Positions 19,461 through 36,700 of a stretch of DNA of 64,000 nt are shown here, one piece after another. Positions within the stretch are counted from its first letter, which is position 1. The number at the start of each line of letters is the position of its first letter. The stretch lies in contig JALHOO010000001.1 in assembly GCA_022842945.1 (NCBI GenBank), forward strand, positions 24,847 through 88,846, written 5' to 3'. Made by a program: the position numbers and the translations under genes. A model generated the notes under the pieces. It did no database searches, was not told the origin of the DNA, and was given only the letters and a program-made list of their open reading frames with translations. This DNA comes from Minisyncoccota bacterium. GTDB lineage: Bacteria; Patescibacteriota; Minisyncoccia; Phycocordibacterales; Phycocordibacteraceae.

Positions 19461-20479
19461 TGATTCTTCGCGAGCACGTACCGCTCTCTTCTCTAACAAC
19501 CCTTAAGGTTGGAGGACTCGTGCGCTATGTAGTTGAGTGCGCAAGCGAGAGTGACGTGCGCGAGGCACTTACGTTTGCACACGCACAGAACCTTCCGTGG
19601 AGTGTGCTTGGGGAAGGGAGCAATGTCCTTGCGAGAGATGAAGGATACGCGGGTGTGTTGTTGCTGATGCGCATGCAGGGGTGTGTGTTCGAGGAAACCG
19701 ATGGCTCTGTTCTTGTAACCGCTGGAGCAGGTGTTCCATGGGACGAGTTTGTGACTCTGTGTGTGGAGCGGGGTTTGTGGGGCGTTGAGAACCTTGCAGG
19801 CATCCCGGGAACCACAGGAGCCTCTCCGGTGCAGAACATTGGTGCGTACGGCACAGAAGCCTGCGACTCACTTGTTGAGGTACGTGTTCTCAATACCAAG
19901 ACTGGAGAAGTAGAACACATAGCAAACAAAGATTGCGCTTTCGGATATCGGGAAAGCAGGTTTAAGCACGACAAGACGCTCATTATCCTGTCCGTTGTTT
20001 TCAGGCTTCAAATAGAGGGCTCGCCTTCACTAGGGTATAAGGATCTTGCGGCATACGAGGCTATGAATGGAGCACTCACAACCCCCAAAGCCATAGCAGG
20101 GGCCGTACGTTCAATACGTGCACAGAAGTTCCCAGACCTCGCTACACACGGGACGGCAGGCTCGTTCTTCAAGAACCCAACTATTTCAAAAGAGAAGTAC
20201 ACAGAACTCGCTGAGAAGTTTGAAGGGCTGCCGGGATTTGCAAATGATACGGGTGTAAAGATCCCGCTCGCGTTCGTTCTCGATCGCGTGCTTAACCTCC
20301 GCGGATACACAGAAGGGAACGTATCGCTGTTTGAACGTCAGCCACTTGTGCTGGTTGCGCACACAGGAGCAACAGCGCACGAGGTTGATGTGTTTGCAAA
20401 AAGTATTGCCGAGCGTGTGCATGACGTCACAACTATTTCAGTTGAACGCGAAGTGCAACCGTTTCCATCAAAGATATGA
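19460..20479 (+). CDS. murB: UDP-N-acetylenolpyruvoylglucosamine reductase
   Basis: FAD-binding N-terminal domain LTTLKVGGLVRYVV...VLGEGSNVL and ENLAGIPGTTGASPVQNIGAYG. Confidence 0.9.
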   Translation: MILREHVPLSSLTTLKVGGLVRYVVECASESDVREALTFAHAQNLPWSVLGEGSNVLARDEGYAGVLLLMRMQGCVFEETDGSVLVTAGAGVPWDEFVTLCVERGLWGVENLAGIPGTTGASPVQNIGAYGTEACDSLVEVRVLNTKTGEVEHIANKDCAFGYRESRFKHDKTLIILSVVFRLQIEGSPSLGYKDLAAYEAMNGALTTPKAIAGAVRSIRAQKFPDLATHGTAGSFFKNPTISKEKYTELAEKFEGLPGFANDTGVKIPLAFVLDRVLNLRGYTEGNVSLFERQPLVLVAHTGATAHEVDVFAKSIAERVHDVTTISVEREVQPFPSKI

Positions 20480-20492
20480 AAACTTTTCTAAC

Positions 20493-20533
20493 AAAAAACA
20501 TTCGCAACAAATTATTTTGTTGCGAATGTTTTT
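20493..20533 (+). terminator. Intrinsic terminator after murB
   Basis: Perfect 17-bp inverted repeat AAAACATTCGCAACAAA-TTAT-TTTGTTGCGAATGTTTT followed by T. Confidence 0.65.
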
Positions 20534-20640
20534 AAAACTTATCCACACATAAAATATTTTGTTGCATTAATTATTATTTTTAACCGCATACTATTCCTTA
20601 GCACGCATCACAAAGAAATTTTTCATACGAAAAGTTTTTT

Positions 20641-20889
20641 ATGATGCGGGTCGACAATATCAGTCATAGAAATTTATCTAGACTTATGGCAGCAAAGAAG
20701 AAGGCAGCGAAGAAGGCAGCTCCAAAGCGTAAGGTCGCTAAGAAAGCAGCTCCAAAGCGCAAGCCAGCAAAGAAGGCAGCTAAGAAAGCAGCTCCAAAGC
20801 GCAAGCCAGCAAAGAAGGTTGCGAAGAAGGCTGTTAAGAAGGCAGCGAAGAAGGCTCCAGCTAAGCGGAAGGCCGCAAAGCGCAAGTAG
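20641..20889 (+). CDS. Lys/Ala-rich histone H1-like basic protein (alternative start ATG 20686)
   Basis: AKKAAPKRK(P/V)AKKAA repeats, encoded by about 42-bp tandem nucleotide repeats. Terminators flank it on both sides. Confidence 0.5.
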   Translation: MMRVDNISHRNLSRLMAAKKKAAKKAAPKRKVAKKAAPKRKPAKKAAKKAAPKRKPAKKVAKKAVKKAAKKAPAKRKAAKRK

Positions 20890-20907
20890 TTTTCAGAACT
20901 CCTTTTT

Positions 20908-20940
20908 GAGAAAACCTCCCACCGGGAGGTTTTCTCGTTT
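20908..20940 (+). terminator. Intrinsic terminator after the Lys-rich gene
   Basis: Hairpin GAGAAAACCTCCC-ACC-GGGAGGTTTTCTC followed by GTTTT. Confidence 0.65.
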
Positions 20941-21005
20941 TACGCGGGCACTGTAAGAGGAGCGCGATGTGCGGTATAGTGCCGATACCTTATATATAGA
21001 TACGT

Positions 21006-23537
21006 ATGGCTACCATCCTTGGAAAACTGTTCTCGAAGAATCAATCAGCAAGCTTTGTTAAGACAGCAGGGCCTGTTGTAGAGCAAGCTAATAAGCTCTC
21101 TGAGAGCTTTGAGGCTCTTGCGGGGAGTGAGCTCATAAGTCGCCTTGCGGCAGTACGAGAGCGGTGCAAGGGTGTGCCAACCGAGACCAATGATGTTGCT
21201 GAGGTGTTTGCGCTCGTACGTGAGGCAGCCAGACGCACGCTGAACGAACGCCATTACGACGTACAGCTTATTGGAGGGCTTGTCCTTGGAAAGGGAAAGA
21301 TTGCCGAGATGCGTACCGGAGAGGGAAAGACACTCGTTGCGACGCTTCCGGTTACCTTGTTTGCGCTTGCAGGAAAGGGTGTGCACGTTGTTACGGTTAA
21401 CGACTATCTCGCACGTCGCGACGCTGCATGGATGGGGCAGGTGTATGCAGCCCTTGGTCTTAGTGTGGGTGTAGTTACATCCGGAGGTGCCTATCTCTAC
21501 GACGCGTCACACACAGAGACGCAAGACGATGAGAAGCGTGACGAAGAAGGATCGTTCCGTGTGTTCTACGACTTCTTGCGTCCGGCTACAAAGCAGGAGG
21601 CATACAAGGCAGACATTACGTACGCAACAAACAACGAACTTGGCTTTGATTACCTGCGTGACAACACGGCGTATGACGCGGGTCAGATAGTACAGCGCGG
21701 ACAGCACTACGCTATCGTGGACGAGATCGACTCCATTCTTATTGATGAGGCACGCACACCACTCATTATCTCGGGACCTGCAGGAGACGCTGAGGGCCTC
21801 TACGAGCGCTTCGCAAGCATTGTGCGCGCCTTTGCACAGGAAGAGGACTATACGGTTGATGAGAAGCAGCGTGCGGTGCAGATAACCGAAGAAGGAATTC
21901 GAAAGGCTGAAGCAGCACTTGGTATTGAGAACCTCTATGCCGAGGGCGGCATGAAGTACGCGCACCATTTGGATACTGCCGTACGTGCAAAAGCATTGTT
22001 CCGTGGCGACAAGGAGTACGTCGTTAAGGAAAACGAGATTGTTATCGTGGACGAGTTTACCGGGCGCCTTCAGCCAGGACGCCGCTGGAGCGAAGGACTG
22101 CATCAGGCTGTTGAAGCTAAGGAAGGTGTACCTATCCAGAAGGAGACACGTACCTATGCCTCGGTTACGTTCCAGAACTTCTTCCGCATGTATACGCAAG
22201 TAGCGGGTATGACCGGAACCGGCCTCTCGTCTGAGGAGGAGTTCTTTACAGTGTATGGCCTTGAGGTTGTGCAGGTACCCACCCACCGGCCAATTGCTCG
22301 AAAGGACTATGACGACCTTATCTTCCAGAACCTGAAGGGGAAGTATGCGGCGCTCGCGAGTCATGTAAAGGAAGTACATGCGAAGGGGCAGCCGGTGCTT
22401 ATTGGTACGGTGTCTATTGAGGACAACGAGGTGGTGAGCGCAGCGCTTACTAAGGCAGGTATTCCACACGAGGTGCTGAACGCAAAGAACCACGAGCGTG
22501 AGGGAGAGATTATTGCGTCAGCGGGACGCAAGGGTGGGGTCACGGTTGCAACAAACCTTGCCGGACGCGGTGTCGACATTAAGCTTGGAGGCATCAACGC
22601 GCGTCCTGAGGACCGCGAGGAAGTGCGCTCCCTTGGAGGACTCCTTGTTATTGGTACCGAGCGTCATGAGGCACGTCGTATTGATGATCAGCTTCGCGGA
22701 CGCTCTGGTCGCCAGGGAGATCCGGGCGAGACTCGCTTCTATGTGTCGCTTGATGACAAGCTTATGCGTGTCTTTGCGTCTGACATGGTTAAGAACGTCA
22801 TGGGAACCTTCAAGATTCCTGAGGACGAGCCGATAGAGAGCTCTCTTATCACGCGTGCTCTTGAGACCGCCCAGAAGCGTATCGAAGGATTCAACTTCGA
22901 TTCTCGCAAGCAGGTGCTCTCATATGACGATGTGCTCAACACCCAGCGCCTTGCGGTATACCGCGAGCGTATGACGGCACTCCTTGGGACTGATGAGGAG
23001 ATTGAGGCTCTCGTGAAGAGCTTTATGGAAGGGAACGCAGAGGCTCTCGCTATATACGAGGCAAAGAAGGAAGAGTTCGGAGCACAAGCGCTGTCTATGC
23101 TCATGCGCCGTTTGGTTCTCCAGGTTACCGACACCTTCTGGCTTGAGCACCTTGAGTCCATGGACTACCTCCGCCGCTCGGTGTCTCTTCGTGCATACGG
23201 CCAGCGCGATCCGTTGATTGAGTACCGCAAGGAGGGTCTAGGAAGGTATAAGGCACTCCAAGAGGGTGTACGTGCTGCGGTTACGGAAGCTATTCCGCGC
23301 ATTCGTCCGGCAGACGACGCTCGCATCCGTGCAGAAGAGGAGAAGGTGCGTGCGAAGCTTGTTGCGGCAGGCGCAAACACTGACGACACAGGAGAGCCGG
23401 CACCGCCTATCAAGAACACGCAAGAATACGGACGCAACGACGAGGTAACGATACGAAAGGGAGATGAGACGCAGACCGTAAAGTACAAGAAGGCAGAGCC
23501 GCTCTTGTCCGAAGGTTGGGAGATTGTAACGAAGTAG
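21006..23537 (+). CDS. secA: Preprotein translocase ATPase SecA
   Basis: 843 aa. DEAD-like motor motifs (MRTGEGKTLVATLP, VTVNDYLARRD, VDEIDSILIDEARTPLIISG, TNLAGRGVDIKLGG, LLVIGTERHEARRIDDQLRGRSGRQGDPGETRF). Confidence 0.95.
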   Translation: MATILGKLFSKNQSASFVKTAGPVVEQANKLSESFEALAGSELISRLAAVRERCKGVPTETNDVAEVFALVREAARRTLNERHYDVQLIGGLVLGKGKIAEMRTGEGKTLVATLPVTLFALAGKGVHVVTVNDYLARRDAAWMGQVYAALGLSVGVVTSGGAYLYDASHTETQDDEKRDEEGSFRVFYDFLRPATKQEAYKADITYATNNELGFDYLRDNTAYDAGQIVQRGQHYAIVDEIDSILIDEARTPLIISGPAGDAEGLYERFASIVRAFAQEEDYTVDEKQRAVQITEEGIRKAEAALGIENLYAEGGMKYAHHLDTAVRAKALFRGDKEYVVKENEIVIVDEFTGRLQPGRRWSEGLHQAVEAKEGVPIQKETRTYASVTFQNFFRMYTQVAGMTGTGLSSEEEFFTVYGLEVVQVPTHRPIARKDYDDLIFQNLKGKYAALASHVKEVHAKGQPVLIGTVSIEDNEVVSAALTKAGIPHEVLNAKNHEREGEIIASAGRKGGVTVATNLAGRGVDIKLGGINARPEDREEVRSLGGLLVIGTERHEARRIDDQLRGRSGRQGDPGETRFYVSLDDKLMRVFASDMVKNVMGTFKIPEDEPIESSLITRALETAQKRIEGFNFDSRKQVLSYDDVLNTQRLAVYRERMTALLGTDEEIEALVKSFMEGNAEALAIYEAKKEEFGAQALSMLMRRLVLQVTDTFWLEHLESMDYLRRSVSLRAYGQRDPLIEYRKEGLGRYKALQEGVRAAVTEAIPRIRPADDARIRAEEEKVRAKLVAAGANTDDTGEPAPPIKNTQEYGRNDEVTIRKGDETQTVKYKKAEPLLSEGWEIVTK

Positions 23538-23549
23538 TTTGGAAAGATG

Positions 23550-23585
23550 AAAGACCGTCCTCGGAATCGAGGACGGTCTTTCGCG
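23550..23585 (+). terminator. Intrinsic terminator after secA
   Basis: Hairpin AAAGACCGTCCTCG-GAAT-CGAGGACGGTCTTT followed by TCG. Confidence 0.65.
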
Positions 23586-23593
23586 TTGTCGTG

Positions 23594-23622
23594 TGCAACC
23601 GTACTCGCACCATGCCTATAAT
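23594..23622 (+). promoter_or_regulatory. Candidate sigma70-like promoter for obg
   Basis: TGCAAC, a 17-nt spacer, then TATAAT (23617-23622), about 40 nt upstream of the obg ATG. Confidence 0.3.
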
Positions 23623-23660
23623 ATTAGGTAAAGTCAACGTTCTGTGGTATCCTCCTACAA

Positions 23661-24653
23661 ATGGCTTTTGTTGATGAGATGCATGTACACGCAGTAGCCG
23701 GTCACGGAGGATCGGGTGTTGTGAGGTGGCTTCATATGAAAGGACTTGAGAAGGGTGGTCCTGCAGGAGGCGACGGAGGACGCGGTGGAGACATCGTGGT
23801 TGAGGCCGTGCGTGACCTTGCGGCTCTTGCTGCATATCGCTACACCAAGCGCATCAAAGCGGAGAATGGGGGTCCTGGAGAGGGGGTGGACCGCCACGGC
23901 AAGAACGGGGAACCAGTGGTACTTCGGGTGCCTGTAGGGAGCACGGTGCGGGTGTCTTCTACGAACGATACCTTCGAGCTTCTGAAGGAAGGAGAGCGCG
24001 TGATTGTGCTTAAGGGAGGTCCTGGGGGCTATGGGAACGCGCACTACAAGGGACCCACAAACCAGAATCCAATGCAGTTTACGCCGGGCAAGAACGGCCA
24101 GACTGGGGATATCCATATCACCCTGAAGCTCATTGCAGACGCCGGGTTCATAGGCTTCCCGAACGCCGGGAAGTCCTCTCTCTTGAACGAGCTTACCCGT
24201 GCTCGCTCTCGTGTGGGTGCCTATCCGTTCACCACCCTCGACCCCCATCTCGGAGACTTCTATGGCCGCATCTTGGCTGATATTCCAGGTCTTATCGAGG
24301 GAGCCTCGGAAGGGCGAGGTCTCGGTTCTCGGTTCCTCAAGCATATAGAACGTACAAGGTTCCTTGTACATCTCGTCTCGGTTGAACAAGAAGACGTTGT
24401 TTCGGCTTATAGGGCCATACGGGACGAGCTCAGGGCGTTCGGGAACGGTCTCGACCAGAAGGACGAGCTCGTGGTGCTTACGAAGGTAGACCTTTTAACC
24501 GAGGAAGAGGCTGAAAACCTCCGGGTATCTCTTGAGAGGGAGGTGGGGAAGCCTGTGCTCGCGCTCTCCATTGCAGACGAGAATCTCGTAAAGCAGTTCT
24601 CAGATACGCTTACCAAAGAGCTCGCCAAGGCCGATTCCGTAGTAGCCGAGTAA
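23661..24653 (+). CDS. obg: GTPase Obg/CgtA
   Basis: Obg fold N-terminus with the Gly-rich region GGDGGRGGDIV, plus G1 GFPNAGKSSL, G3 DIPGLIEGA and G4 TKVD. Confidence 0.9.
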   Translation: MAFVDEMHVHAVAGHGGSGVVRWLHMKGLEKGGPAGGDGGRGGDIVVEAVRDLAALAAYRYTKRIKAENGGPGEGVDRHGKNGEPVVLRVPVGSTVRVSSTNDTFELLKEGERVIVLKGGPGGYGNAHYKGPTNQNPMQFTPGKNGQTGDIHITLKLIADAGFIGFPNAGKSSLLNELTRARSRVGAYPFTTLDPHLGDFYGRILADIPGLIEGASEGRGLGSRFLKHIERTRFLVHLVSVEQEDVVSAYRAIRDELRAFGNGLDQKDELVVLTKVDLLTEEEAENLRVSLEREVGKPVLALSIADENLVKQFSDTLTKELAKADSVVAE

Positions 24654-24678
24654 CCTCCACCCGTGCTAGCATTTTTGT

Positions 24679-26100
24679 ATGAGTGCCTACCGTCCCACCA
24701 TAGGGCTTGAGATCCATGCCGAGCTCGCTACGAGCTCGAAGATGTTCTGTGCTTGCAAGAACGAGCCTGAGGGATCTGCTCCAAACGTGCACGTGTGTCC
24801 AGTCTGTATGGCGCACCCAGGAGCGCTTCCGGTTGCGAACAAGGAGGCAGTGCGACAAGTGCTGCGCGTGGGTACGGCTCTTAAAGCGAAGCTCGCCGAC
24901 TTCACCGAGTTCGATCGCAAGAGCTACTTCTATCCCGACATTCCGAAGGGGTATCAGATCAGTCAGTTCGAACATCCACTCGTTGCAGGAGGAACTCTTG
25001 CGGGCGTTGCGGTTACGCGTGTGCACCTCGAGGAGGACACGGCGCGCTCCTCGCACACTGCGAAGGAGGGTGTGAGTCTCGTCGACTTCAATCGTGCTGG
25101 TGTGCCGCTCATGGAACTTGTCACAGAGCCGGTCATCCATGACGCAGAGACTGCAGGAGTCTTTGCACGCGAGCTCCAGCTCCTCCTTCGTACGATTGGT
25201 GCCTCACATGCAAATCTTGAGAAGGGAGAGATGCGTGTCGAAGCAAATATTTCAGTATCGAAAGATGACACGTTTGGTACAAAAGTTGAGGTGAAGAATT
25301 TGAACTCCTTCCGCTCGGTGGAGCGTGCCATCGCGTTCGAGATTGAGCGTCAGTCCAAGCTTCTGGACGAGGGAGGCGTCGTGCTCCAGGAGACACGCGG
25401 ATGGGATGAGGGAGGACAGCGTACCTTCTCACAGAGACTGAAAGAGGGTAGTGCAGACTACCGGTACTTCCCAGAGCCGGATCTGCCGAAGCTCTATCGT
25501 TCAGAGATCCCTGAGTTCTCGGATGAGGCACTTCGCGCGTCTCTTCCAGAGCTTCCATGGGAACGACGTAGCCGATACGTTTCTCTTGGACTCAAGGAAA
25601 GCGACGCGGTGTTCTTCGCAGGCTCTCATGCACGCAGTACATTTCTTGATGCGGTTATAGAGGAGCTTGGAGGAGACACCAGTCTTTTAACAACAGCCGT
25701 GAACTATCTCAGTTCTGACGTTGCAGGTTGGTATGCGAAGAGCGAGAAGGAAGAGTACGAAGGGTTTCTTCCTGCACAGCTCATAGCGCTCGTACGGCTC
25801 GTGAGCACCGGTGCTCTATCCTCGAGGGGTGCCAAGGACGTGCTACCGCATCTCCTGTCTGGGGGAGGTGATCCTGAGGAGATAGCGAAGCGTGAGGGCC
25901 TTATACAGGTCAGTGACGAAGGTGCTCTTCGTGCAGCTGTTGAAGCAGTCCTAAAGGAGCATGCTGACGTGGCTGCAGAGTACCGTGCAGGCAAAGAGTC
26001 TTCTCTCCAGTTCCTGCTGGGAATGAGCATGAAGGCCATGAAGGGGGCAGGGAACCCAGGTGTGCTGAAGGGTCTCTTGGAGGAGGCGCTCAAGGCATAG
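24679..26100 (+). CDS. gatB: Asp-tRNA(Asn)/Glu-tRNA(Gln) amidotransferase subunit B
   Basis: IGLEIHAELATSSKMFCACKNE...; the GatB N-terminus and the C-terminal GatB_Yqey region are conserved. Confidence 0.9.
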   Translation: MSAYRPTIGLEIHAELATSSKMFCACKNEPEGSAPNVHVCPVCMAHPGALPVANKEAVRQVLRVGTALKAKLADFTEFDRKSYFYPDIPKGYQISQFEHPLVAGGTLAGVAVTRVHLEEDTARSSHTAKEGVSLVDFNRAGVPLMELVTEPVIHDAETAGVFARELQLLLRTIGASHANLEKGEMRVEANISVSKDDTFGTKVEVKNLNSFRSVERAIAFEIERQSKLLDEGGVVLQETRGWDEGGQRTFSQRLKEGSADYRYFPEPDLPKLYRSEIPEFSDEALRASLPELPWERRSRYVSLGLKESDAVFFAGSHARSTFLDAVIEELGGDTSLLTTAVNYLSSDVAGWYAKSEKEEYEGFLPAQLIALVRLVSTGALSSRGAKDVLPHLLSGGGDPEEIAKREGLIQVSDEGALRAAVEAVLKEHADVAAEYRAGKESSLQFLLGMSMKAMKGAGNPGVLKGLLEEALKA

Positions 26101-26116
26101 GTCACAGCGGATTAAA

Positions 26117-26149
26117 GAACACCTCTCCATCTTTTGGAGGGGTGTTTTC
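26117..26149 (+). terminator. Probable intrinsic terminator after gatB
   Basis: Imperfect hairpin AACACCTCTCCA-TCTT-TTGGAGGGGTGTT followed by TTCA. Confidence 0.4.
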
Positions 26150-26221
26150 ATATTTACGCACTCACACTTGTCCTGTTCATAACCTCTTCGTATCGAGGCG
26201 AGAAAGCCTTATACTCAAAGC

Positions 26222-27109
26222 ATGGATGAGATAACTATTGAGGGGAAGGTATACATCTCGTCAAAGCAGGCGGCCAAAATTACTGGATATGCAAAGGATT
26301 ACGTTGGCCAGCTTTGTCGAGAAGGACGTGTTGACGCTCGTCACATAGGGCGTAATTGGTACGTTCTTGAAGATTCGATCCGTGAACATCGCTTTGGAGT
26401 ACCAGAAGAGAAGCCTGTGGAGGCTCCTAGGCAGGTAGAGAGTGCAATGAATACCGTATCTACCTGGCAGAAGCCACAGTATGCGCCTGAAGCACCTGTG
26501 TCTGTGCCAAGTCTGACTCCAAAGGCCCCTGAGGCGCCTGTGAGCACGCCTGCAATAGCAGATATGCAGTCTGCATGGAAGGAGTGGTTCGAAGAAAAGA
26601 AGCCTGTTATGGCGCTTCCAGACGGCTCAGAGGACTTTAAGGAAGAGTATTTGCCTCTCATTGTGCCTGAACCTGCTCTCGAGGAGGTTAAGGCAGAGGC
26701 TCCAGTGGAGGAACCAGAGGAAATGGTTGTTATTTCTCGCATACGCCCTGTGCCTGAAGAGGTTGCAGACGTGATTCCAGAGGAGGAAAAGGTTGAGCTA
26801 CACCGATCGTATACAACTACTACTTCTCCTCGTATGGAATACGACGATGGAATTGTAGAGGTGCCGCAGCCTGCTCACGTCACAGCGCCCGTTATAAAGG
26901 CTCCGTACCAGCCTGTTGAGGAGAAAGCATCAGCAAGTGGAGTCGTGCGCGCCCTGCTTATGGTGCTAGCTGTTGCGTCAGCAATGGTAGCGCTTATAGG
27001 AACAGGGAACGCAGATCAGCTTCTATCGGGTACTAGCCTAGACTTCGGTGCCCAGAAGGAGGTAATCGATTTTCTCGGTGGAAAGAGTACCTACGAAAGT
27101 AGCTTATAG
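26222..27109 (+). CDS. Hypothetical membrane-anchored protein with an N-terminal excisionase-like HTH (HTH_17-type) module, a Pro/Glu-rich linker and one TM helix near the C-terminus
   Basis: The N-terminus YISSKQAAKITGYAKDYVGQLCREGRVDARHIGRNWYV fits the HTH_17 pattern (..EAA..LG.S..T.YRL.R.G.LPA.KIGR.WRI). A TM helix VVRALLMVLAVASAMVALIG follows. The N-terminal module is paralogous to the N-terminus of the downstream giant gene. Confidence 0.5.
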   Translation: MDEITIEGKVYISSKQAAKITGYAKDYVGQLCREGRVDARHIGRNWYVLEDSIREHRFGVPEEKPVEAPRQVESAMNTVSTWQKPQYAPEAPVSVPSLTPKAPEAPVSTPAIADMQSAWKEWFEEKKPVMALPDGSEDFKEEYLPLIVPEPALEEVKAEAPVEEPEEMVVISRIRPVPEEVADVIPEEEKVELHRSYTTTTSPRMEYDDGIVEVPQPAHVTAPVIKAPYQPVEEKASASGVVRALLMVLAVASAMVALIGTGNADQLLSGTSLDFGAQKEVIDFLGGKSTYESSL

Positions 27110-27318
27110 AATATGAATATCTCGTCTCGTATACGCAAGATATGCATATGAGACAGGGGATGATGTAAAGAAAGAAAAAGAAGCAAAACAGCGCCAAATA
27201 AGGCGCTGTTTTGCTATGTATGTGGATCACAGGGTCATATTAAACCAACTGCGGCCTATATTCTGTGTTGCGAGACTCACAATGATCATAAGATAAGGAC
27301 AAATCGTCCTCTACAACC

Positions 27319-27344
27319 CTACATACCTATATATAGGTATGTAG
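27319..27344. promoter_or_regulatory. 26-bp perfect palindrome in the AT-rich leader upstream of the giant gene (candidate operator)
   Basis: CTACATACCTATATATAGGTATGTAG, which is exactly self-complementary, sits within the 590-bp intergenic region. Confidence 0.4.
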
Positions 27345-27701
27345 AAAAAAGTGCAGCGAGTAGAAATTCATCCGACTATCATAAGTATTCATTACTTATT
27401 GCGGCTGAACGACCTACCTATACTAATTAATGTATGAATCTCTTTTTGCATTGCGATCGATGAGTCAAAGAAGATTTGTGAGTGAAGTTGAGAGAGTGCG
27501 GGCACAAGATGTACCGAATTTCATCTTACATTTGCTTCTTAACTTCGACGCGCGAGTAAAAATTTCTTCGCACTTCTTCAATGCCGAACGCTACACAAAT
27601 GTTGATGAAGTATTCCTTACAGCTATCCCCAAAGGAGTATGCACGAATAGCTAAATAACAAGCTAGAATGTAGTTAATTCGGACAACCGACCTACTGAAC
27701 C

Positions 27702-30700
27702 TTGAACGCACTCTTACAGAAAAATTTTATCTCAACTAAGGAAGCATCTTTGCTTTCGGGATACAACGCTGACTACCTGTCGCGTCTTTGTCGCGAGAAG
27801 AGAATCGCAGGTTCACAGATTGGAAGGACGTGGCTCATTGAGCGCGCGTCTCTTGAATCCTTCATGGAGAGCCAGGTTGATAGGAAGATTGAATTTGCAG
27901 AGAGTCTCGCTCGAGAGCGTGGCCTTGAGTACCGAAAGGCAAACTCGCCGAGTGCACGCATCACAAGAGTTACTGACAACCTTGAGGAGAGAATGCGCGT
28001 GGTTGCGGAATCGGTGTTCACTGCGTTGTCTGTGGTGACCATGCCGCGTGAGGTGTCGGTGTTCGGAAGCAGGGCTGTTGCTCTAGGTCTTACGGCTCTC
28101 GTGCTTGCAGGAAGCGTAACGCTCGCGGGAAGCGGAGTTGTTTCTCGCACAGGAGAAGCGCTCCTCGCCTCTGCATTTGATGCACGCTCGTTTGTACTCG
28201 CGCGCGCTTCACACATCGGACTCGTTGCGCAAGAAAAGTCTGAGGCACTTATTCTCGCGTCTAGAGAAGAAGTTCAGAAAGTTGATACGACTCTTGCGTA
28301 CGCACTAGATGAACGTGTAGAAACTCTTCCACTTGAGGTGAGTAAGAATCTTGCACAGGAGCACCCATCTGTTGAAGTGTCCAAGGTCGCATACGGACGT
28401 GCGCACGAAATCTACTCACGCTACCCAGCAGTACTTTCTTCAGCAGAGATCGCTGCGAATGTCTCATACGCGGTTACACACCCAGAAGAGACACTCACAG
28501 CAGTTGCTCACGGAGTACTGCATGGATACCGCACCATCGGTGTATTCGCACTCAACGATATTGAGAGCGTCCTCGCGCTACACCTACGCATGGTTGAAGC
28601 GGGTGGAGAGGGATTGTTCTCAGCGAGTGTTTCTATTCGAGACACCGCATACCGCGCACCACTCGCTGTAGGCAATGTATTTGTTGATGGTTCTGAAACG
28701 GTTATGTCTCTCTACGAAGACGGTGTGTATGCATACGTTGAGACTATTGCCGTGGTGCCAGAGACTATCGTCGGAGCGGTGTACCAGATCGGAAACACGT
28801 CAGGCGCAGTACTTGCTACGGGCATACAGTTGGCTCCAGGTGCATACGAGGAAGGCGTACTCGCGTTTGCAGAGACCTCGTCTTCTGTAGCAACGCTCGT
28901 TGCAAACGGTTCCTATGCGTTTGGAAAGGGAGCGAATGAGCAGGTTTCCGGCCTCACACAGGCGCAGGACCGCGTTATTGGACAGGGAGTAGCGAGTGTC
29001 CGCCTTGCGCTCGCGGGTCTTAGCGGACGCGCTACACAGATGGCGGCGGTTATCGAGTCAGGTCCGAGTGCAGCCTCAAACGAGGCGCTTCGGTTTGCGG
29101 GAGACATCACTCTTCGTATTGAGAACACTGGGACGCAGATGCTCTCAGCGTCACCACTCGCATCGATTGATTTCGATCGCTTCATTCCAGGATTCTTGAA
29201 GAACGTAACAGCGGTTATTGCACATGCCGTTGGAAGCGCCTTCCATGGAGTCTTCGGTCCTCTCGCAGGGTTCTTTGGTGCATCAGAAGAAGTGGGTCTT
29301 GCGGTTATCCCTAACGAAGGCACTCTATCCTCAGGGGACGCTGAAGCAGGTGTACCAGGAGACACGATTAACTACAACGGACCGGTAACTATAATCCGTA
29401 ACGAGTACCCAACCGCAAACTACGGCGGCGTGCCGCAGTCCTATGTTGATGACCGACTCGACTTCCTAAGGCGCACACTCTACAACCGCATCGAAGACGT
29501 TGCAGGAGACCGCACGTTCCGTGGCGACATCAACGACAGCCGAATCGTTGATAGCACTATTAACGATTCAAGTTTCTCAAACGGTGTTATTGAAAACTCA
29601 CAAATTACCGGAGGCACCATCGTTGGTAGTGCACTTAATGTTGCAACCACTACCATCACCGGCTCACTCACGGTTGATGGCGATCTTTCCGTTTCCGGCA
29701 GTGTCTCTCAGAACTCGACCACCACCAACTTCTACGCAACCAACGGCACCATTGAGAACATCCTCGGAACCAATGCAACGATTACGAACGCCACCTCCAC
29801 CAATTTCTATGCGACTCTCGCAACGATTCTGGATGGATTCTTCACGAACCTCACGGCAACCCTCGCAAACATTACGACTGCTGTTATAGCGAACCTCACC
29901 GCCACTGATGCGGTGTTCACCAACGCCACCAGCACGAACGCAACGTCAACGAATCTCTTCGCCTCAAACCTCACGGCAACAAGCGCAACCTCAACCAACC
30001 TCTTCGTTACGAGTGCCCGTATCACGACAGGTATCATTGACGCGCTTACCTCACCGCTCGCAAACATCACCACTGCGATTATCGCGAACCTCACCGCAAC
30101 CAATGCGTCTATCACGAACGCGACCACCACCAACGCAACCAGTACAGGCTCACTTGCGCTGACCTATGTCACTCCGTCGAGACTCCTTTCCGTTGGTGCA
30201 TCGGGCGTTGTGGGATCAGCCGACCTCTCCTCATGGATTGCGGGAACCTTGAATCAGCTCACGGTTACCGACAACGGCATTGGCGGCATAACACTCTCAC
30301 TTCCATCAACCATCGTTATTGGAAGCTCACAGCCAACCACCATCGCAAGCAACGGCGCTACCTCAACCTTTGGCGGAGGACTCCAGGCTACGTTCGTTGA
30401 GGGTGTGCAGTACATCGCAGGCCCGTATGTGCTCGCAACTTCAACAACCGCAACATCTGCGTTCTCAGGAAACATTGCGGTTGGCCGCAATACAACGCTT
30501 GGTACTACCGCCGCTGACTTCCTAACGGTTAACAGCTCCATTAGCTCGAACCTCATTCCGTCTGCAAACAACACGTATGATCTGGGATCGGTAGGGAACA
30601 ACTGGAACCGTATCTATGTGGATGAAGTAGTGGCGAATAACATCTCTGCTGCCTCTAGTTCGATTGCAGGAACTGTCTCCGAGTCATTCACAATTAACTC

Positions 30701-33700
30701 CGATAACGCAACGGCGGATACTGAAGATAGTACGCTCGTTTTCAATCGCGGAAGCGCTTCACCAAATGCGCTTATAACCTGGAACTCAGCTACAGACCGC
30801 TTTGAGCTCAATATGCCAATCTTCTCGGCAGATGGCATATTCACGAACGCCACTACTACGAACCTCGTAGCGACGAACGTCACGGTTAATGGCGAGACCT
30901 TTACCGACTTCACGGGTACGAACCTCACCAACACCGGAGGAGCGCTTGGTCTCTCTGCCTCCTACGCTGGGCAGAGCTCCATTACAACCCTGGGTACCAT
31001 AACCTCAGGAACCTGGAACGGTTCAACGGTCGGGGTGCCATACGGCGGTACCGGTGCAACCTCACTCACCGGTCTCCTTATTGGAAACGGTACGGGAGCA
31101 TTTACCGCAACCACACTCTCCTCCGGTATTGCAGGACAGATCTCAGACGAGACGGGTACCGGCTCGCTCGTGTTCAGCAACAGCCCAACTTTCACTGGTA
31201 CAAGCGTGTTCGCTGACCTTACCGCCACGAACGCCACCACCACCTCATTCTTCACCTCAACACTCGGTCTCGGTTCCGGAAACTACTTCACGTCGCTTCT
31301 TGGCAACGGCCTCACGAACGTAGGCGGCACCCTCACGGTCTCAACTACATCTCTTGCCTCAGGCTTCTTCCAGCAGGGAGGGAACTCGTTTGGCACAACG
31401 GCAACACTCGGTACCAACGATGCAAACAACCTCGCTCTTGAGACGGGAGGATCTACAAGGATGACGATTAATACGAGTGGGAATGTTGGTATAGGCACGA
31501 CTACTCCCGCTGTCAGATTTAGCGTATATGAAGGTAGCTCATCAATTGCTGCAGCGTTCCGTGGTGGTGGTGGACCGACCGTTGGAATCGGATCAACTGT
31601 CGATGGAGGTAGAATCCAGGCTTATACGAATGATTCCTTAGTCTCCGTCGCTAACATCTCACTCCAATCAGCTGGTGGCAACGTGGGTATAGGTACGACC
31701 ACCCCCGCATCCCTGCTCCAGGTAGTCTCTTCCGGTGGGTTCACTACGTCGGCACAGACAATAGCCTCGTTCGTACGTAATGGCAGCACAGCGAGCGATG
31801 CTGTGGTCTCTATCATTGCTGGAAATGCCGCAAAATCTTTCCTTAGATTTGGTGACACTGATACTGAGGCGATGGGTATCATCAAATATGATCATGCACT
31901 GAACGCTCTTACGTTCGGTACTAACGGCGTCCAGGACTTGTTGAACATTACGTCTACAGGCAACGTCGGCATCGGTACAACCTCTCCTTTCTCGCCAGCA
32001 AGTATTGGAAGAGTGCTCAATATCTTCAATACAACTGGACTGAACGCAGGAATTAACCTTTCCTCGGGAGCTGAAGATTTTGAAGTTGCAAATGTCTCAG
32101 GAGATTTGTGGTTCATTGATGACAACTCGACAAGGATGGTTATCAAAAACACCACCGGCAATGTCGGAATCGGGGAGACCGCTCCAGGTTCGCGACTATC
32201 TGTATCTGGCGGGGCAACTATTGGTGCTTCCTACGACACGACGGCCGCACCAACAAACGGCCTTCTTGTGGAAGGTAGTGTCGGTATTGGTACGACGACA
32301 CCAGGAAATTTGTTGACAGTATCTGGTGCAACTCCCAAGATTCAGATAAATTCTGTAACAGGTTTTCCTTCGTTGTTGTTTTCCGATGGTGGAACAACAC
32401 GTTATGAAATTTACAGTGATGCAGCAGGAGTATTGAAGTTTGTTGAGGGTGGTGCAGGGTCAAGGATGGTGATAAATAGTGGCAACGTCGGTATTGGTAC
32501 TACTACTCCCGACACAACCCTCAACGTAGTGAAGGGTGCAGGAAAAACATGGACAACAACCGCAGGAACGGTGGCATTGTTTGAACGTGCAAATAGTTCA
32601 GGAGCAGCAGCGTACATCTCTGTTATCTCAGGAAACACGGGTCTTGCGCGCCTCCAGTTAGGAGATACAGATGCAGAGGCACGAGGATTAGTGCAGTACG
32701 ACAACAGCAGTGATGCGCTTTCTTTGTGGACGGCAGGTACCCAGAAGCTCACTGTTCTTGCTGGAGGCAACGTTGGTATCGGCACCACCACCCCCGGCCA
32801 GACCCTCTCTGTCGCTGGTACCGGCCTCTTCTCCGGCCTCTCCACATTCATGTCCGGTTTCAACATCGGCAGCGAAACCTTCACTTCACTTCTTGGAAAC
32901 GGCCTCACGAACGTAGGCGGCACTCTCACGGTCTCAACCACATCTCTTGCCTCAGGCTTCTTTCAGCAGGGAGGGAACTCATTTGGAACAACCGCAACAC
33001 TTGGCACCAACGACTCAAACAACCTCGCTCTTGAGACGGGAGGATCTACAAGGATGACGATTGATACAAGCGGGAATGTGGGGGTCGGTTTAACGAGCCC
33101 AAGTGACCGCTTTGAAGTAAGGGCGGCAGGAAACGACGACGGTATTCGGCTTCAAAGCAGCAATGGCTCAAATAACCTTGCGTGGCTTCATCAGCAGAAT
33201 ACGGATGCAGCAATACTTCGCATGTATGACGGCGGCACAGAGAACATACGCATAAATTCAGAGACGAGCGGCGCGAGCTTCTTTAATGCGGGCAACGTCG
33301 GTATTGGCACCACAAGTCCACAGGCATCGTTGCATGTTGCAGGTGCAAGTGGTGCGCTCTTTGGTCTTCAGGCAGGTCAGGTTGGAACTCTGGGACTAAC
33401 AACGGCAAGCGCAGGCTCTCCGGTCAGTGGACGCCTAACGTTTGGCTCGGATGGTACAGGGTGGCAGTTCAGGATTGCACAGAATGTTGCAGGAACTGTT
33501 ACAGATCTTTTTACGGTTGAGACAGGAGGTAATGTTGGTATCGGCACCACAACTCCGAGCGCACTCCTCTCGCTTGCAAGTGGCACAACTGCTGCAAGTG
33601 GTATTGCATTTGGTAGTGATGTAAATCTCTATCGTCACTCAGCAAACCTTCTTAAGACAGACGATGACATTACCCTCGGTAGTGGTCTGTATCTTTCAAA

Positions 33701-36700
33701 CACTGGAGAAGTATACGGAACTCAGTTGGTGAACAATGTGACCGGGCTCAATGCGGCAGTTGCGGTTACAACTACAGGCGTAACCATAACGAGGAATATC
33801 GCAGATACGAACCCGGCTCTCATTGTTTCGCAGGCGCATGCAGGTTCAACAGGCGATATAATGCGACTCAACAATAGCGCCGGTACCGTACTAACGGTGC
33901 AACGGGGAGGTAATGTAGGTATTGGTACAACATCCCCACTATCAAAGCTCCATGTGAACGCAGGAGACATAACTGTTACAAATAGCAGTGCCAATCCCGC
34001 GTACTATCTCGGGGAAAGTGATCTGCTTACGGCAGGTACCTATGGCTACATGACCTGGGACCGTACCAGCGATCTTCTACAGCTTGGTACGCAAGCAGCA
34101 GGCCCAACCATAACCATGAGTGAGAGTGGGAATGTTAGTATTGCCACCACTACATCCCTTGGTAGGTTGCAAATTGCAAAGAATTCACTCTACACAAACG
34201 CAGATGGTGACGCTGGTATCCATATACTCTCAAACACGGGAGAATCTGCTCTTGCACTTGGTGCAGATGATACAAACAATCTGGCCTTTATCCAGTCTGT
34301 CCAAAGTGGAGTCTCGTATAGCACTCGACCGCTCTCGTTAAATCCTAATGGTGGCAACGTCGGTATTGGTACTACAGGCCCTGGGTCTAGATTCCATGTA
34401 GAAGGCGGAGGTGTGATCATTAACACTGTCGGAGGTGCAGGAACCTCTATTGGTCGACACATTAATATTGGTACTGCAACACCAACAGACTGGAGGTCAT
34501 ACACAGGCTCCACCGCTGCAGCTATCCAGATGCAGAATAGTGCAACAGAAGGATTCGTTCTTGTTGCGACCGTTGGCGCTACCGTACCAAGAACTCAGTT
34601 CATTACGACAGGAGGGTATGAAATTCAGGTAGGAGCAACTGTTGGCGGGGCGGGTACAACAGCGCTCCAGATACTGTCTTCAGGCAACGTCGGTATTGGC
34701 ACCACCTCACCAACTTCACTCTTGAACGTTTCTGAAACAGGTAGTAACTCAGCGACATTTGGAACAGCTATTCCTTTCAGGGTTTCGAGCACGAACTCTT
34801 TGAACTCGAATGTTCATGTTGGTCTAGGATTCGAGCGAACGAACTTTAGTGGCGAAATGAAACTCTCAGGAGTCATAGATATCATTTCCGGGACAAACTC
34901 AGCAGGCGCGGAGAATTCTTCAATGCGATTTGGCACTCTAAAAGCAGGGACGCTTACACAACACATGATTATTGACTCGACTGGCAACGTCGGTATCGGT
35001 ACCACGTCGCCCGTTTCGAAGCTCTCGGTAGTCGGCGGTGCGTACCTCGGCGGAAACGTATTCATTGGAGATAACCAGCGAGGATACTTCATCGGTGAAG
35101 TAAATGATTTCAGTTATGGTGTTTCGAAAAGCGCATTAGGAAGCTCTGCAAACTTGCAGTTTAGCGCCGGCAGCGCAACTCCTCGGATGTCTATAACGAG
35201 TACGGGCAACGTTGGTATTGGTACAACAACCCCTCTAGGAAGGGTGCATATCCTTGGATCAGAAGGCGTAGTGGCACATCCACCAGTCGGGTTCGCATCG
35301 GTAGCGGACGATCTCATTATTTCCAATAACGGAAGCAGCGGTATTACCCTTCAGGGAAGTAATTCTGGAACAAACTACATCGTCTTTGCAGATGCGGCAC
35401 TGGGAGGAAACAACTGGATTGCGTATGAGCATGCGAATGATGCACTCGCATTCCGTGTGAACAATGCTGAGCGCATGCGCATCAATAGTGCAGGCAACGT
35501 CGGTATCGGTACCTCAACACCATTCTCCAAACTGTCTGTCACCGGAGCAGGTACGGGCACCGGACGAGGCTTCAGTGTTGCAAACTCCAGCAACCTCGAC
35601 AACTTCTACGTGCTTGATAATGGAACCACGTACACAAGAGGAAACATAACCCTCCCATTCCAAACAAATAACTTCATCGGTAGTGCATCCAACAACGGGC
35701 TGTACTTTGATGGGTCAGGAAACTACGGTATGTCCGTTAACAGTAGTATTGGTGGAGGGATTGTCTTTGAAAGTGATGGAGGAAGTACCGGCAGCTTCTT
35801 CATCGGAACAGGAAATGAAGACCCTGACAGTGCAACAAAACTAGTTACCGTTCTTCAGGGTGGCAACGTCGGTATCGGTTCAACAGCACCGCTGTCTGCG
35901 TTTCAGGTTGGGGCAGCACCAACATATAACTTTGCTGTCACTAACCCAAAGGCAAATATTATTAGTACAAATTACGACCCGACAGAGTTAACTAGAGGTA
36001 CGCTTAATCTAGAATCGTCATCGAGGTCAGCAGGAAACAACAGTGGACTTGGTCCCTCACTCACTTTTACTCAAAACACTAGTCAGTATGTAGATGGATA
36101 CGAAAAAGTGATTGGTGCGATTAAGGCATACATTACTACAAATACAAACGCTAGTGCGAATAGTAGTTTAGGCTTCTATACCCATGATGTCGGCTCATCA
36201 TTAACTGAGCAAATGACTATAAATAGTTCTGGTAACGTCGGTATTGGTACTACCAACCCAGCTTCCCATAAGCTGGTTGTGGTGGGAGGTAATGCCAATA
36301 CCTTGCGTATCGATAATGCTGGTGAGCAGTACACTTCTGCTGACTTCTTTAACAATGGCTCATCAAAGGCTACGCAGTATTACGACAACACAGGTTCAGA
36401 GTTCGTGTCCCGCACAACGGTAGCTGCCAACCTTGGGTTTGACACAAACCTGACGCGTCGTATGACCATCCTTTCAAATGGCAACGTCGGTATTGGTACA
36501 GCAAGTCCTAGTTACAAGTTTACTGTGACGGAGTCTACTGCAAACGGTATAGCCGGGCGATTTGCAGCGAGTGGAACAGGTACTCCGTTCGGTGTCTATG
36601 CAACTGCTCTCGGAGCTTCTACACAAAACACTGCAGGATATTTCCAAGCGAGCGGTGCAACGACCAACATTGGCGTGAGTGCAGATGTTGTCTCTGGTGC

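Follow-up and report, generated by a model that had tools for sequence, protein, structure and literature searches.

A giant membrane-anchored fibre and its small partner protein share an excisionase/MerR-type winged helix-turn-helix module in Patescibacteria: candidates for membrane-tethered DNA binding

Introduction

ToxR-type transmembrane regulators bind promoters while they stay membrane-anchored (PMC6320335, PMC11856585). Here we describe two neighbouring genes with a comparable order of parts, located on a 64-kb chromosomal segment of a Patescibacteria (Paceibacteria/Parcubacteria-type) genome (contig JALHOO010000001.1; the whole segment is called the window hereafter, and all coordinates refer to it). 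The open reading frame (ORF) 26222-27109, the small gene, and the ORF 27702-40313, the giant gene, encode proteins that start with the same helix-turn-helix (HTH) module and traverse the membrane further downstream. As in ToxR, TcpP, CadC and TfoS/ChiS, an N-terminal cytoplasmic domain of the DNA-binding type is followed by a linker, a single transmembrane (TM) helix and an extracytoplasmic C-terminal part. This likeness is functional and does not signify family membership, because Pfam gives only HTH_17 and a weak AbiEi_4 match for the two proteins, and the OmpR-type winged HTH (wHTH; Trans_reg_C) of the ToxR/CadC group was not found. In addition, that group exposes small sensor domains, whereas the window proteins expose a fibre of 4,000 amino acids (aa) or a tail of 31 aa, and there is no homology. 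RodZ likewise combines a cytoplasmic N-terminal HTH, a single TM helix and an outside C-terminal part, and employs its membrane-tethered HTH for protein binding; however, it is linked to MreB and carries an XRE-type HTH (HTH_25) together with DUF4115, for which the window pair has no Pfam match.

At the level of the fold, the closest described proteins are soluble. The Xis proteins of mycobacteriophage Pukovnik and of Tn916, RdfS, BldC and the N-domain of RacA display the same fold (root-mean-square deviation (rmsd) 1.1-3.8 Å), belong to HTH_17/TIGR01764 and bind DNA, often cooperatively on repeated sites, yet they are proteins of 50-70 aa (RacA with a coiled coil) with roles in recombination directionality, development and chromosome anchoring, none of them integrated into the membrane. 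The nearest solved relative by sequence is TraN (ORF14) of Enterococcus pIP501 (PDB 4P0Y/4PM3/6G1T), an experimentally established repressor that binds double-stranded DNA with two such wHTH domains (PMC6158623, PMC10877727). TraN has the same excisionase/MerR-like wHTH with matching contact positions, and its tandem arrangement of two domains recurs in some giant variants, but it is a small cytosolic repressor of a conjugative type IV secretion system (T4SS) operon without a TM helix or an extracellular part. Unlike T4SS repressors of this class, the window proteins have TM helices and adjoin housekeeping genes (secA, obg and gatB; gap and rpiB). As for the fibre, the giant protein resembles Peptidase_S74 phage tail fibres and endosialidases in that a Peptidase_S74 domain follows repeats rich in Gly, Thr, Ser and Asn, as in trimeric fibres. 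In contrast to these, it is encoded chromosomally in housekeeping synteny and carries an N-terminal TM helix and a cytoplasmic HTH, and it is no virion protein. A prophage origin of the fibre was rejected because this synteny is conserved.

The initial annotation of the window, made from the letters of the DNA, considered the fusion of a DNA-binding-type fold to a membrane or fibre protein an undescribed architecture. This applies in part: a DNA-binding fold capping a single-pass protein is familiar from ToxR/CadC/TcpP, TfoS/ChiS and RodZ, whereas it is new to find an excisionase/MerR-type wHTH there, fused to a fibre of several thousand residues and accompanied by an obligate small paralogous partner and a set of associated DNA motifs. 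Literature searches, whose coverage excluded most subscription journals, returned no description of an excisionase-type HTH fused to a membrane fibre.

Results

Sequence and predicted fold of the shared module

The N-termini of the small protein and the giant align residue for residue, as first proposed, without gaps and with 18 of 40 residues identical (45%) and 70% positives (BLASTP, E 9e-15). The proposed fit to the HTH_17/excisionase pattern is seen at scores around the curated thresholds. Pfam HTH_17 (PF12728, gathering cut-off 27 bits) matches residues 10-58 of the giant above the cut-off when its N-terminal 200 aa are searched (E 2.5e-7, 31.3 bits) and residues 11-55 of the small protein slightly below it (E 3.9e-5, 24.3 bits); the full-length giant scores 25.9 bits. 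The giant module further matches TIGR01764 'excise' (E 3.6e-5, 24.0 bits, cut-off 28.8), and the relatives P0132-P0166 reach 25-58 bits against HTH_17, the majority over the gathering cut-off. A six-frame phmmer search of the whole window recovered the module in these two ORFs only (reciprocal E 1.5e-8 and 8e-10), the next best match having E > 0.4.

AlphaFold (AF2) models, built from 72 homologues for the small protein and covering residues 1-160 of the giant, predict the HTH fold with high local confidence (predicted local distance difference test, pLDDT, of 90-95 for residues 1-60 of the small protein and 97-98 for residues 10-80 of the giant). The topology of the small-protein module is beta-beta-alpha-alpha-beta-beta-alpha, the giant adopts the same wHTH, and the strand, helix-turn-helix, beta-hairpin wing and C-terminal helix are present in both models. 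Foldseek places Pukovnik Xis, TraN, BldC, RdfS, Tn916 Xis and RacA as the best matches of the two modules at probabilities of 0.9-1.0. The small module superimposes on Pukovnik Xis with an rmsd of 1.1 Å over 44 columns and also finds BldC, RdfS and RacA, and the giant module has TraN as its top match (31% identity, rmsd 2.0 Å); CbpM, a MerR-like J-domain binder, is also among the fold matches. TraN of pIP501 was independently retrieved from the PDB by sequence with a profile of 45 giant-type modules (E 1.8e-6), and by the profile alone, as a direct phmmer search of the small module against the PDB gave nothing meaningful. Judged by these models and fold matches, the module in both proteins is a genuine excisionase/MerR-type wHTH.

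Conservation at the DNA-contact positions of TraN

In TraN, the contacts R23/N24/Q28, H82/R86 and G100-K101 have been confirmed by mutagenesis (PMC10877727). After the TraN numbering had been checked against the HMMER profile alignment and the same publication, R23/N24/Q28 aligned with K25/D26/Q30 of the small protein, the giant counterparts being residue 23, D24 and R28; H82 aligned with R28 of the giant, and the wing residues G100-K101 with G43-R44 of the small protein and G41-R42 of the giant. K25, D26, Q30, R33, G43 and R44 are invariant in 72 small-protein sequences, and D24, R28, R31, G41 and R42 are conserved at 86-99% in 74 giant sequences. The HTH core has a mean net charge of +5.2 in the small protein and +2.2 in the giant. 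At the base-contact positions the small-protein subfamily has K/Q and the giant subfamily S/R, a difference that one would expect if the two recognised different sites.

Membrane topology

No hydrophobic segment precedes the module in either protein; by hydropathy, the first one begins at residue 118 in the giant and at residue 236 in the small protein, and neither protein has a Sec/Tat signal peptide or export leader, that is, an h-region within about the first 30 residues. Given this and the fibre-like C-terminal part of the giant, the only sensible predicted topology is N-in, and the module must then be cytoplasmic and N-terminal to the TM helix in both proteins. The initial annotation had placed the module and the C-terminal TM helix of the small protein in the same way, but its statement that the TM helix of the giant directly follows the module needs correction, as about 60 conserved helical residues intervene.

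Conservation of the gene pair

We followed the pair through three samples: a scan of one genome per species, in which relatives of the small protein occurred in at least 225 genomes and 80 loci were kept; an independent metagenome sample, whose contigs were retrieved solely by a 19-nucleotide (nt) DNA motif; and a profile search run exhaustively over 1.84 billion cluster representatives. The small gene and a giant-type gene are same-strand neighbours in about 70 of the 80 species loci and, where downstream DNA exists, the next same-strand ORF starts with the same module and in most cases is longer than 3,000 aa or is cut off by the contig end. Of the 39 metagenome loci with enough sequence, 37 have a small HTH ORF immediately upstream of the giant. 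Database homologues of the small protein number 1,573, all full-length (about 280-330 aa) and all from Patescibacteria/Paceibacterota.

A profile of the giant-type N-terminus found 8,519 cluster representatives at E <= 1e-3, 2,032 at <= 1e-10 and 114 at <= 1e-30. In the best 150 of these, the module is N-terminal throughout, nearly all have a single TM helix after it, at around residue 100-150 or, with a doubled HTH, at 170-230, and the longest protein has 7,214 aa. The search for C-terminal architectures that the initial annotation had called for revealed only TM-anchored long proteins among these 150, and the module therefore seems to belong to one large family of such proteins, together with the small partner, and is no leader of unrelated proteins. 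Pfam detected no domain except HTH_17 in ten mid-sized relatives, and the proteins are named hypothetical or 'helix-turn-helix domain-containing protein' in the databases. When the single giant N-terminus and the 45-sequence profile were searched against the homologous-protein collection, only 4 and 7 short fragments came back, a collection that evidently does not yield the giants.

Variants of the module exist in the family. Two tandem HTH copies precede the TM helix in giant-type ORFs of several loci (L034 19980-20813, L071 12661-18501, L075 13533-17462, L077 13576-14598 and L081 11039-12565) and in P0131-P0140.

Conserved DNA motifs at the giant gene

The region upstream of the giant gene has a fixed layout in about 87 unique loci, consisting of TTATCC[AC]CA, a TAnnAT box 14 nt before TTCGG, and then TAGTTAATTCGG-N4-CCGAC, which in most relatives abuts the ATG (1 nt to the start codon); in the window and its close relatives, 9-11 nt lie between its end and the TTG. 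The window has a single occurrence of the composite pattern, with TTCGG-N4-CCGA at 27678-27690, against 0 expected. Across the 1.3 Mb of fetched loci, TTCGG-N4-CCGA was counted 53 times, and 52 of these are located just 5' of a giant start (1 to about 30 nt). The same specificity holds in the metagenome sample: 44 of the 50 exact matches of the 19-mer precede an ORF found by the HTH profile and 3 more precede truncated copies of the same gene, i.e. at least 47 of 50. Two spacing classes, one helical turn apart, separate TATCCMCA from TTCGG: 67 of 87 loci have 45-46 nt and 12 of 87 have 55-56 nt.

An RNA hairpin was rejected as a sufficient account of this leader motif, which folds with -5.7 kcal/mol (z -0.88; 34 of 200 shuffles fold as well). 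The combination of an RNA fold no better than that of shuffled sequences and spacing classes one helical turn apart points to recognition of the palindrome at the DNA level. In about 70 loci (including L001 around 11385, L016 and L022), the upstream element is a 9-mer that matches the DnaA-box consensus, TTATCCACA or TTATCCCCA (CTATCCCCA in the window); it lies at about -50 to -42 from the predicted giant start, at the fixed distance of 45-46 (or 55-56) nt before the palindrome, which suggests DnaA or cell-cycle control of the giant gene, or an extra site for the HTH proteins. A transcription start near 27676 is predicted for the giant gene; its leader would be only about 15-26 nt long and has no Shine-Dalgarno sequence.

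Relatives that clearly lack the palindrome mostly have non-canonical residues at the predicted contacts, for example L023, L034_2, L064, L070, L071, L075_1 and L077_1, and in several of these TATCCMCA and TAnnAT are still present. A third, mid-sized ORF (480-1,555 aa) with a divergent module is present in some loci (L064 10911-12356, L070 11347-16011, L075 11085-12878, L077 11107-12912 and L023 11302-12972). Its wing and recognition-helix residues are changed, and upstream of it TATCCACA and -10-like boxes are kept and the TTCGG-N4-CCGA palindrome is absent.

Conserved DNA motifs at the small gene and in obg

A second motif is associated with the small gene. CGAGRCGAGA is located 6 nt upstream of a TATACT box, the two forming a putative promoter (Table 1); the 10-mer CGAGACGAGA is exact in 20 of 82 loci, with one-base variants in most others. 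Because TATACT ends 6 nt before the ATG and a Shine-Dalgarno sequence is lacking, the small-gene mRNA is suggested to be leaderless, and the motif itself, being placed between the gatB terminator and the -10-like box, is probably not transcribed. The reverse complement of CGAGRCGAGA is ATCTCGTCTCG, which comprises two tandem TCTCG units and occurs three times within 2.8 kb: in obg, inverted in the small-gene promoter, and after the small-gene stop codon. In shuffles and 10-mer counts that covered 73 intergenic regions, 10-mers were common to 36-50 regions, compared to <=5 in shuffles. The downstream copy often precedes a partial inverted copy with compensatory changes.

The copy in obg coincides with the Val GTC and Ser TCG codons, the only zero-entropy columns among 86 conserved columns with 4-6-fold degeneracy (mean 1.71 bits). 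As these are the sole invariant codon choices, nucleotide-level selection is indicated inside obg, a housekeeping gene.

Terminator-like hairpins follow both gatB and the small gene, which argues that the genes form separate transcription units. Rfam searches of 26100-27800 yielded sub-threshold terminator-like matches only and no known RNA family. The initial annotation had suggested autoregulation through the perfect 26-bp palindrome at 27319; this is a weak operator candidate, TTCGG-N4-CCGA being far better conserved. Its core, CCTATATATAGG, occurs once in the window and is common to close relatives only (including L010 around 6240, L014 around 10930, L028 and L050), and its flanks covary over as much as 20 bp per arm. 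The place that belongs to the small-gene terminator elsewhere is taken by the palindrome in L010 and L014; in L014 it is flanked by runs of A and T. It was rejected as the main operator on these grounds and, by its pattern of sequence change, behaves as a hairpin element rather than as a conserved operator.

The giant protein

Translation of the giant gene can begin at the TTG at 27702 at the earliest, as the in-frame stop codons TAA 27675 and TGA 27696 precede it. These stops rule out both a longer ORF reaching further upstream and an alternative genetic code, and close relatives use a TTG at the same place. With 26 GNVGIG-type repeats, 54% G/T/S/A/N, only 5 Cys and a Pro-rich tail, the 4,000 C-terminal residues have the appearance of an extracellular fibre. 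The Peptidase_S74 intramolecular-chaperone domain is matched by the orthologue P0145 (E 3e-61), and its expected cleavage site reads S-D-A-N-L-K, which we take to contain the Ser/Lys motif of Peptidase_S74 self-cleavage. Given its tail-fibre-like repeats and this C-terminal domain, the fibre is probably trimeric, by analogy with phage fibres; if the chaperone domain self-cleaves as it does there, the C-terminal piece beyond it would be freed. A weaker hydrophobic segment (residues 4048-4067, window 39843-39902) is encoded 3' of the Peptidase_S74 domain, and a Pro/Glu/Thr-rich tail at 40180-40310 lies beyond this domain.

The small protein

The HTH of the small protein is nearly invariant across homologues that share only 40-76% full-length identity, as are a W..P.Y..E motif, the DMQSAWxEWF helix and the end of the TM helix. 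The module contains an unusual invariant GY..DY signature, whose Asp opens the recognition helix. Outside the module the AF2 model is largely disordered, except for helix 110-125 and the TM helix 239-260, and the tether of about 160 aa has a charge of -17 and 11% proline. A single hydrophobic segment is present, with 31 residues after it. W82, Y87 and E90 (residues 82-90, window 26465-26491) are invariant in the otherwise disordered, acidic and Pro-rich tether, and both these residues and the DMQSAWxEWF helix look like short linear motifs for binding a partner or the membrane.

Gene context

Upstream, the pair is flanked by a Wzy_C-TPR gene, murB, secA (21006-23537), obg (23661-24653) and gatB (24679-26100), and downstream by gap, rpiB, rpe and a pilin gene. 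The order Wzy_C/TPR, murB, secA, obg, gatB, small HTH gene and giant gene (window 17286-26100; L001-L003) is kept even though the small proteins share only 43-53% identity. The 592-nt intergenic region between the small and the giant gene contains an ORF of 74 aa (27430-27654) that overlaps the conserved promoter elements and is called inconsistently in relatives, as 42 aa on the + strand in L002 and as 67 aa on the - strand in L003; it is probably not a gene.

Table 1. Coordinates of genes, protein segments and DNA elements in the window
Feature	Coordinates	Strand	Basis
gatB terminator-like hairpin	26125-26139		terminator scan
ATCTCGTCTCG 11-mer in obg (codons 237-240)	24370-24380	+	Val GTC 70/70, Ser TCG 73/73
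Putative small-gene promoter region: CGAGGCGAGA 26194-26203, -10-like TATACT 26210-26215, 6 nt before ATG	26194-26215	+	same arrangement in most of 82 loci
Small gene: 295-aa tail-anchored protein, predicted N-in (wHTH; linker, acidic and rich in Pro; TM; tail of 31 aa outside)	26222-27109	+	homologues, AF2, hydropathy
wHTH module of small protein (residues 9-58)	26246-26395	+	HTH_17, AF2, Foldseek
Trp-rich helix DMQSAWxEWF (residues 110-125) in otherwise disordered acidic linker	26549-26596	+	M115, Q116, A118, W119, W122, F123 invariant; sole linker helix in AF2
TM helix of small protein (residues 236-264)	26927-27013	+	Kyte-Doolittle peak 2.54; AF2 helix 239-260
ATCTCGTCTCG right after small-gene stop codon	27119-27129	+	10-mer in 50/73 intergenic regions vs <=5 in shuffles
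Intrinsic terminator of small gene	27182-27215	+	-25.8 kcal/mol, z -8.3; terminator scan; partial Rfam terminator-like matches; analogous hairpins in most loci
26-bp perfect palindrome	27319-27344		-15 kcal/mol, z -4.7
Element TATCCCCA within this stretch	27615-27640		upstream of giant gene
Putative giant-gene control region: DnaA-box-like CTATCCCCA 27623-27631, -10-like TAGAAT 27664-27669, TAGTTAATTCGGACAACCGAC 27672-27692	27623-27692	+	conserved layout
Giant gene: 4,203-aa predicted N-in/C-out membrane-anchored fibre	27702-40313	+	repeats, composition, hydropathy
wHTH module of giant (residues 9-58)	27726-27875	+	HTH_17, TIGR01764, AF2, Foldseek, profile vs PDB
Helical linker of giant, HTH to TM (residues 48-111)	27843-28034	+	AF2 helices 48-80, 83-111; conserved motif Q..RK.E.A..L...RE.EY
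Signal-anchor TM of giant (residues 118-148)	28053-28145	+	Kyte-Doolittle 1.96; AF2 helix 122-143
Peptidase_S74 intramolecular-chaperone domain (residues 3841-3898)	39222-39395	+	PF13884, 29.3-31.7 bits vs cut-off 22

Discussion

The small gene and the giant gene are a conserved pair, and we propose that they encode single-pass membrane proteins whose cytoplasmic wHTH modules would bind DNA while tethered to the membrane. The giant would be a surface fibre anchored in type II orientation (N-in, C-out), and the small protein would be tail-anchored, its module carried on a long, acidic and Pro-rich tether. The likeliest targets would be, at the giant gene, TTCGG-N4-CCGA over the predicted transcription start and, at the small gene, CGAGRCGAGA between the promoter elements and ATCTCGTCTCG after the stop codon, together with the ATCTCGTCTCG copy in obg. 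Each protein could feed back, positively or negatively, on its own synthesis, as ToxR, CadC and TcpP do. Membrane-tethered DNA binding at or near the own genes, probably for autoregulation, is the explanation we favour, and we hold it tentatively. The coupling of fibre production to DNA, which had been raised in the initial annotation, gains from the conserved contact residues and the near-invariant cis-elements, and the binding step itself we infer.

Several observations weigh against this proposal. The assignment of motifs to proteins is by association only. The co-variation of contact residues with the palindrome is suggestive, and it is confounded by the overall divergence of the paralogues. 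A strict sigma-70 scan found no canonical -35/-10 pair, so that the promoter assignments rest on the conserved TAnnnT boxes at fixed positions and the start sites are predictions. TTATCC[AC]CA is the DnaA-box consensus, and DnaA may control the giant promoter. Compensatory changes such as those in the element downstream of the small gene are typical of an RNA or DNA hairpin, a probably trimeric fibre misfits a site of two-fold symmetry, and HTH folds can serve protein binding, as illustrated by RodZ, which binds MreB, and by CbpM among the fold matches.

The last point leads to a different explanation, in which the modules have lost DNA binding and act as cytoplasmic adaptors. They would then link the fibre with its small partner, or dock the two to a conserved component of the cytoplasm, be it the cytoskeleton or the division or secretion machinery. 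We consider this rather unlikely, while acknowledging that much of the small protein would suit it: a module nearly invariant amid overall divergence fits a protein partner too, the Asp of the GY..DY signature stands at the start of the recognition helix, the Trp-rich tether helix resembles a partner-binding motif, a J-domain binder shares the fold, and SecA and cell-envelope genes are syntenic. However, all positions that contact bases or the minor groove in TraN carry conserved, DNA-capable residues in a basic core, the gene-specific conserved DNA motifs would be left unexplained, and synteny with secA, obg and gatB is of the housekeeping kind and does not bespeak a functional link. The near-absolute conservation of protein and site could also reflect a structural role, with the modules tethering the locus to the membrane in the manner of RacA or ParB, and the cluster of ATCTYGTCTCG copies fixing the site for coupled transcription, translation and secretion of the 12.6-kb giant gene. 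An extremely conserved protein paired with an extremely conserved site is known from ParB/parS and from DnaA and the DnaA box. The close clustering of the three copies, the obg copy held at synonymous sites much like centromere-like sites within genes, the chromosome anchor RacA among the fold matches, and a small-protein tether long enough to reach the nucleoid would all agree with such a role. Still, only three sites are seen, two of which stand where classical operators of the small gene would be sought, motif counts taken in the window by itself do not rise above chance, and this domain family has no precedent as a locus tether; we judge this role improbable.

We attach hardly any likelihood to a third possibility, also considered in the initial annotation, that the module is a lineage-specific leader for the targeting, export or quality control of very large secreted proteins and has no role at DNA. 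That it heads long TM-anchored proteins by the thousand, always at the very N-terminus among the best 150, would be in keeping with this idea, yet the module is a compact, folded cytoplasmic domain without a hydrophobic signal, the TM helix downstream is sufficient as a signal-anchor for membrane targeting, the small partner has the same module and exports 31 residues only, and our literature searches gave no export system using this fold.

If tethered DNA binding is taken as the premise, the giant fibre could even be a sensor of contact or load that is wired to the chromosome. With its wHTH it would occupy TTCGG-N4-CCGA at the start of the giant gene, the ATCTYGTCTCG sites, including the one in obg, would let the small partner keep the locus at the membrane, and assembly, breakage or host attachment of the fibre would alter transcription of the 12.6-kb gene without an intermediate signalling protein. 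This extension is speculative and, in our estimate, improbable; if true, it would represent a minimal surface-to-DNA signalling device fit for the reduced genomes of episymbiotic Patescibacteria.

Independently of how the modules act, the motif at synonymous sites of obg and the DnaA-box-like element of the giant promoter offer leads into gene regulation in this lineage. Patescibacteria contribute a large part of the diversity of bacteria; most of them have not been cultivated, and the group presumably lives attached to other cells. How these bacteria sense and control the structures on their surface is little known. Should the domains described here bind the motifs, the proteins would make up a new class of DNA-binding transmembrane proteins based on the excisionase/MerR fold and would provide a direct physical link from a cell-surface fibre to gene expression.

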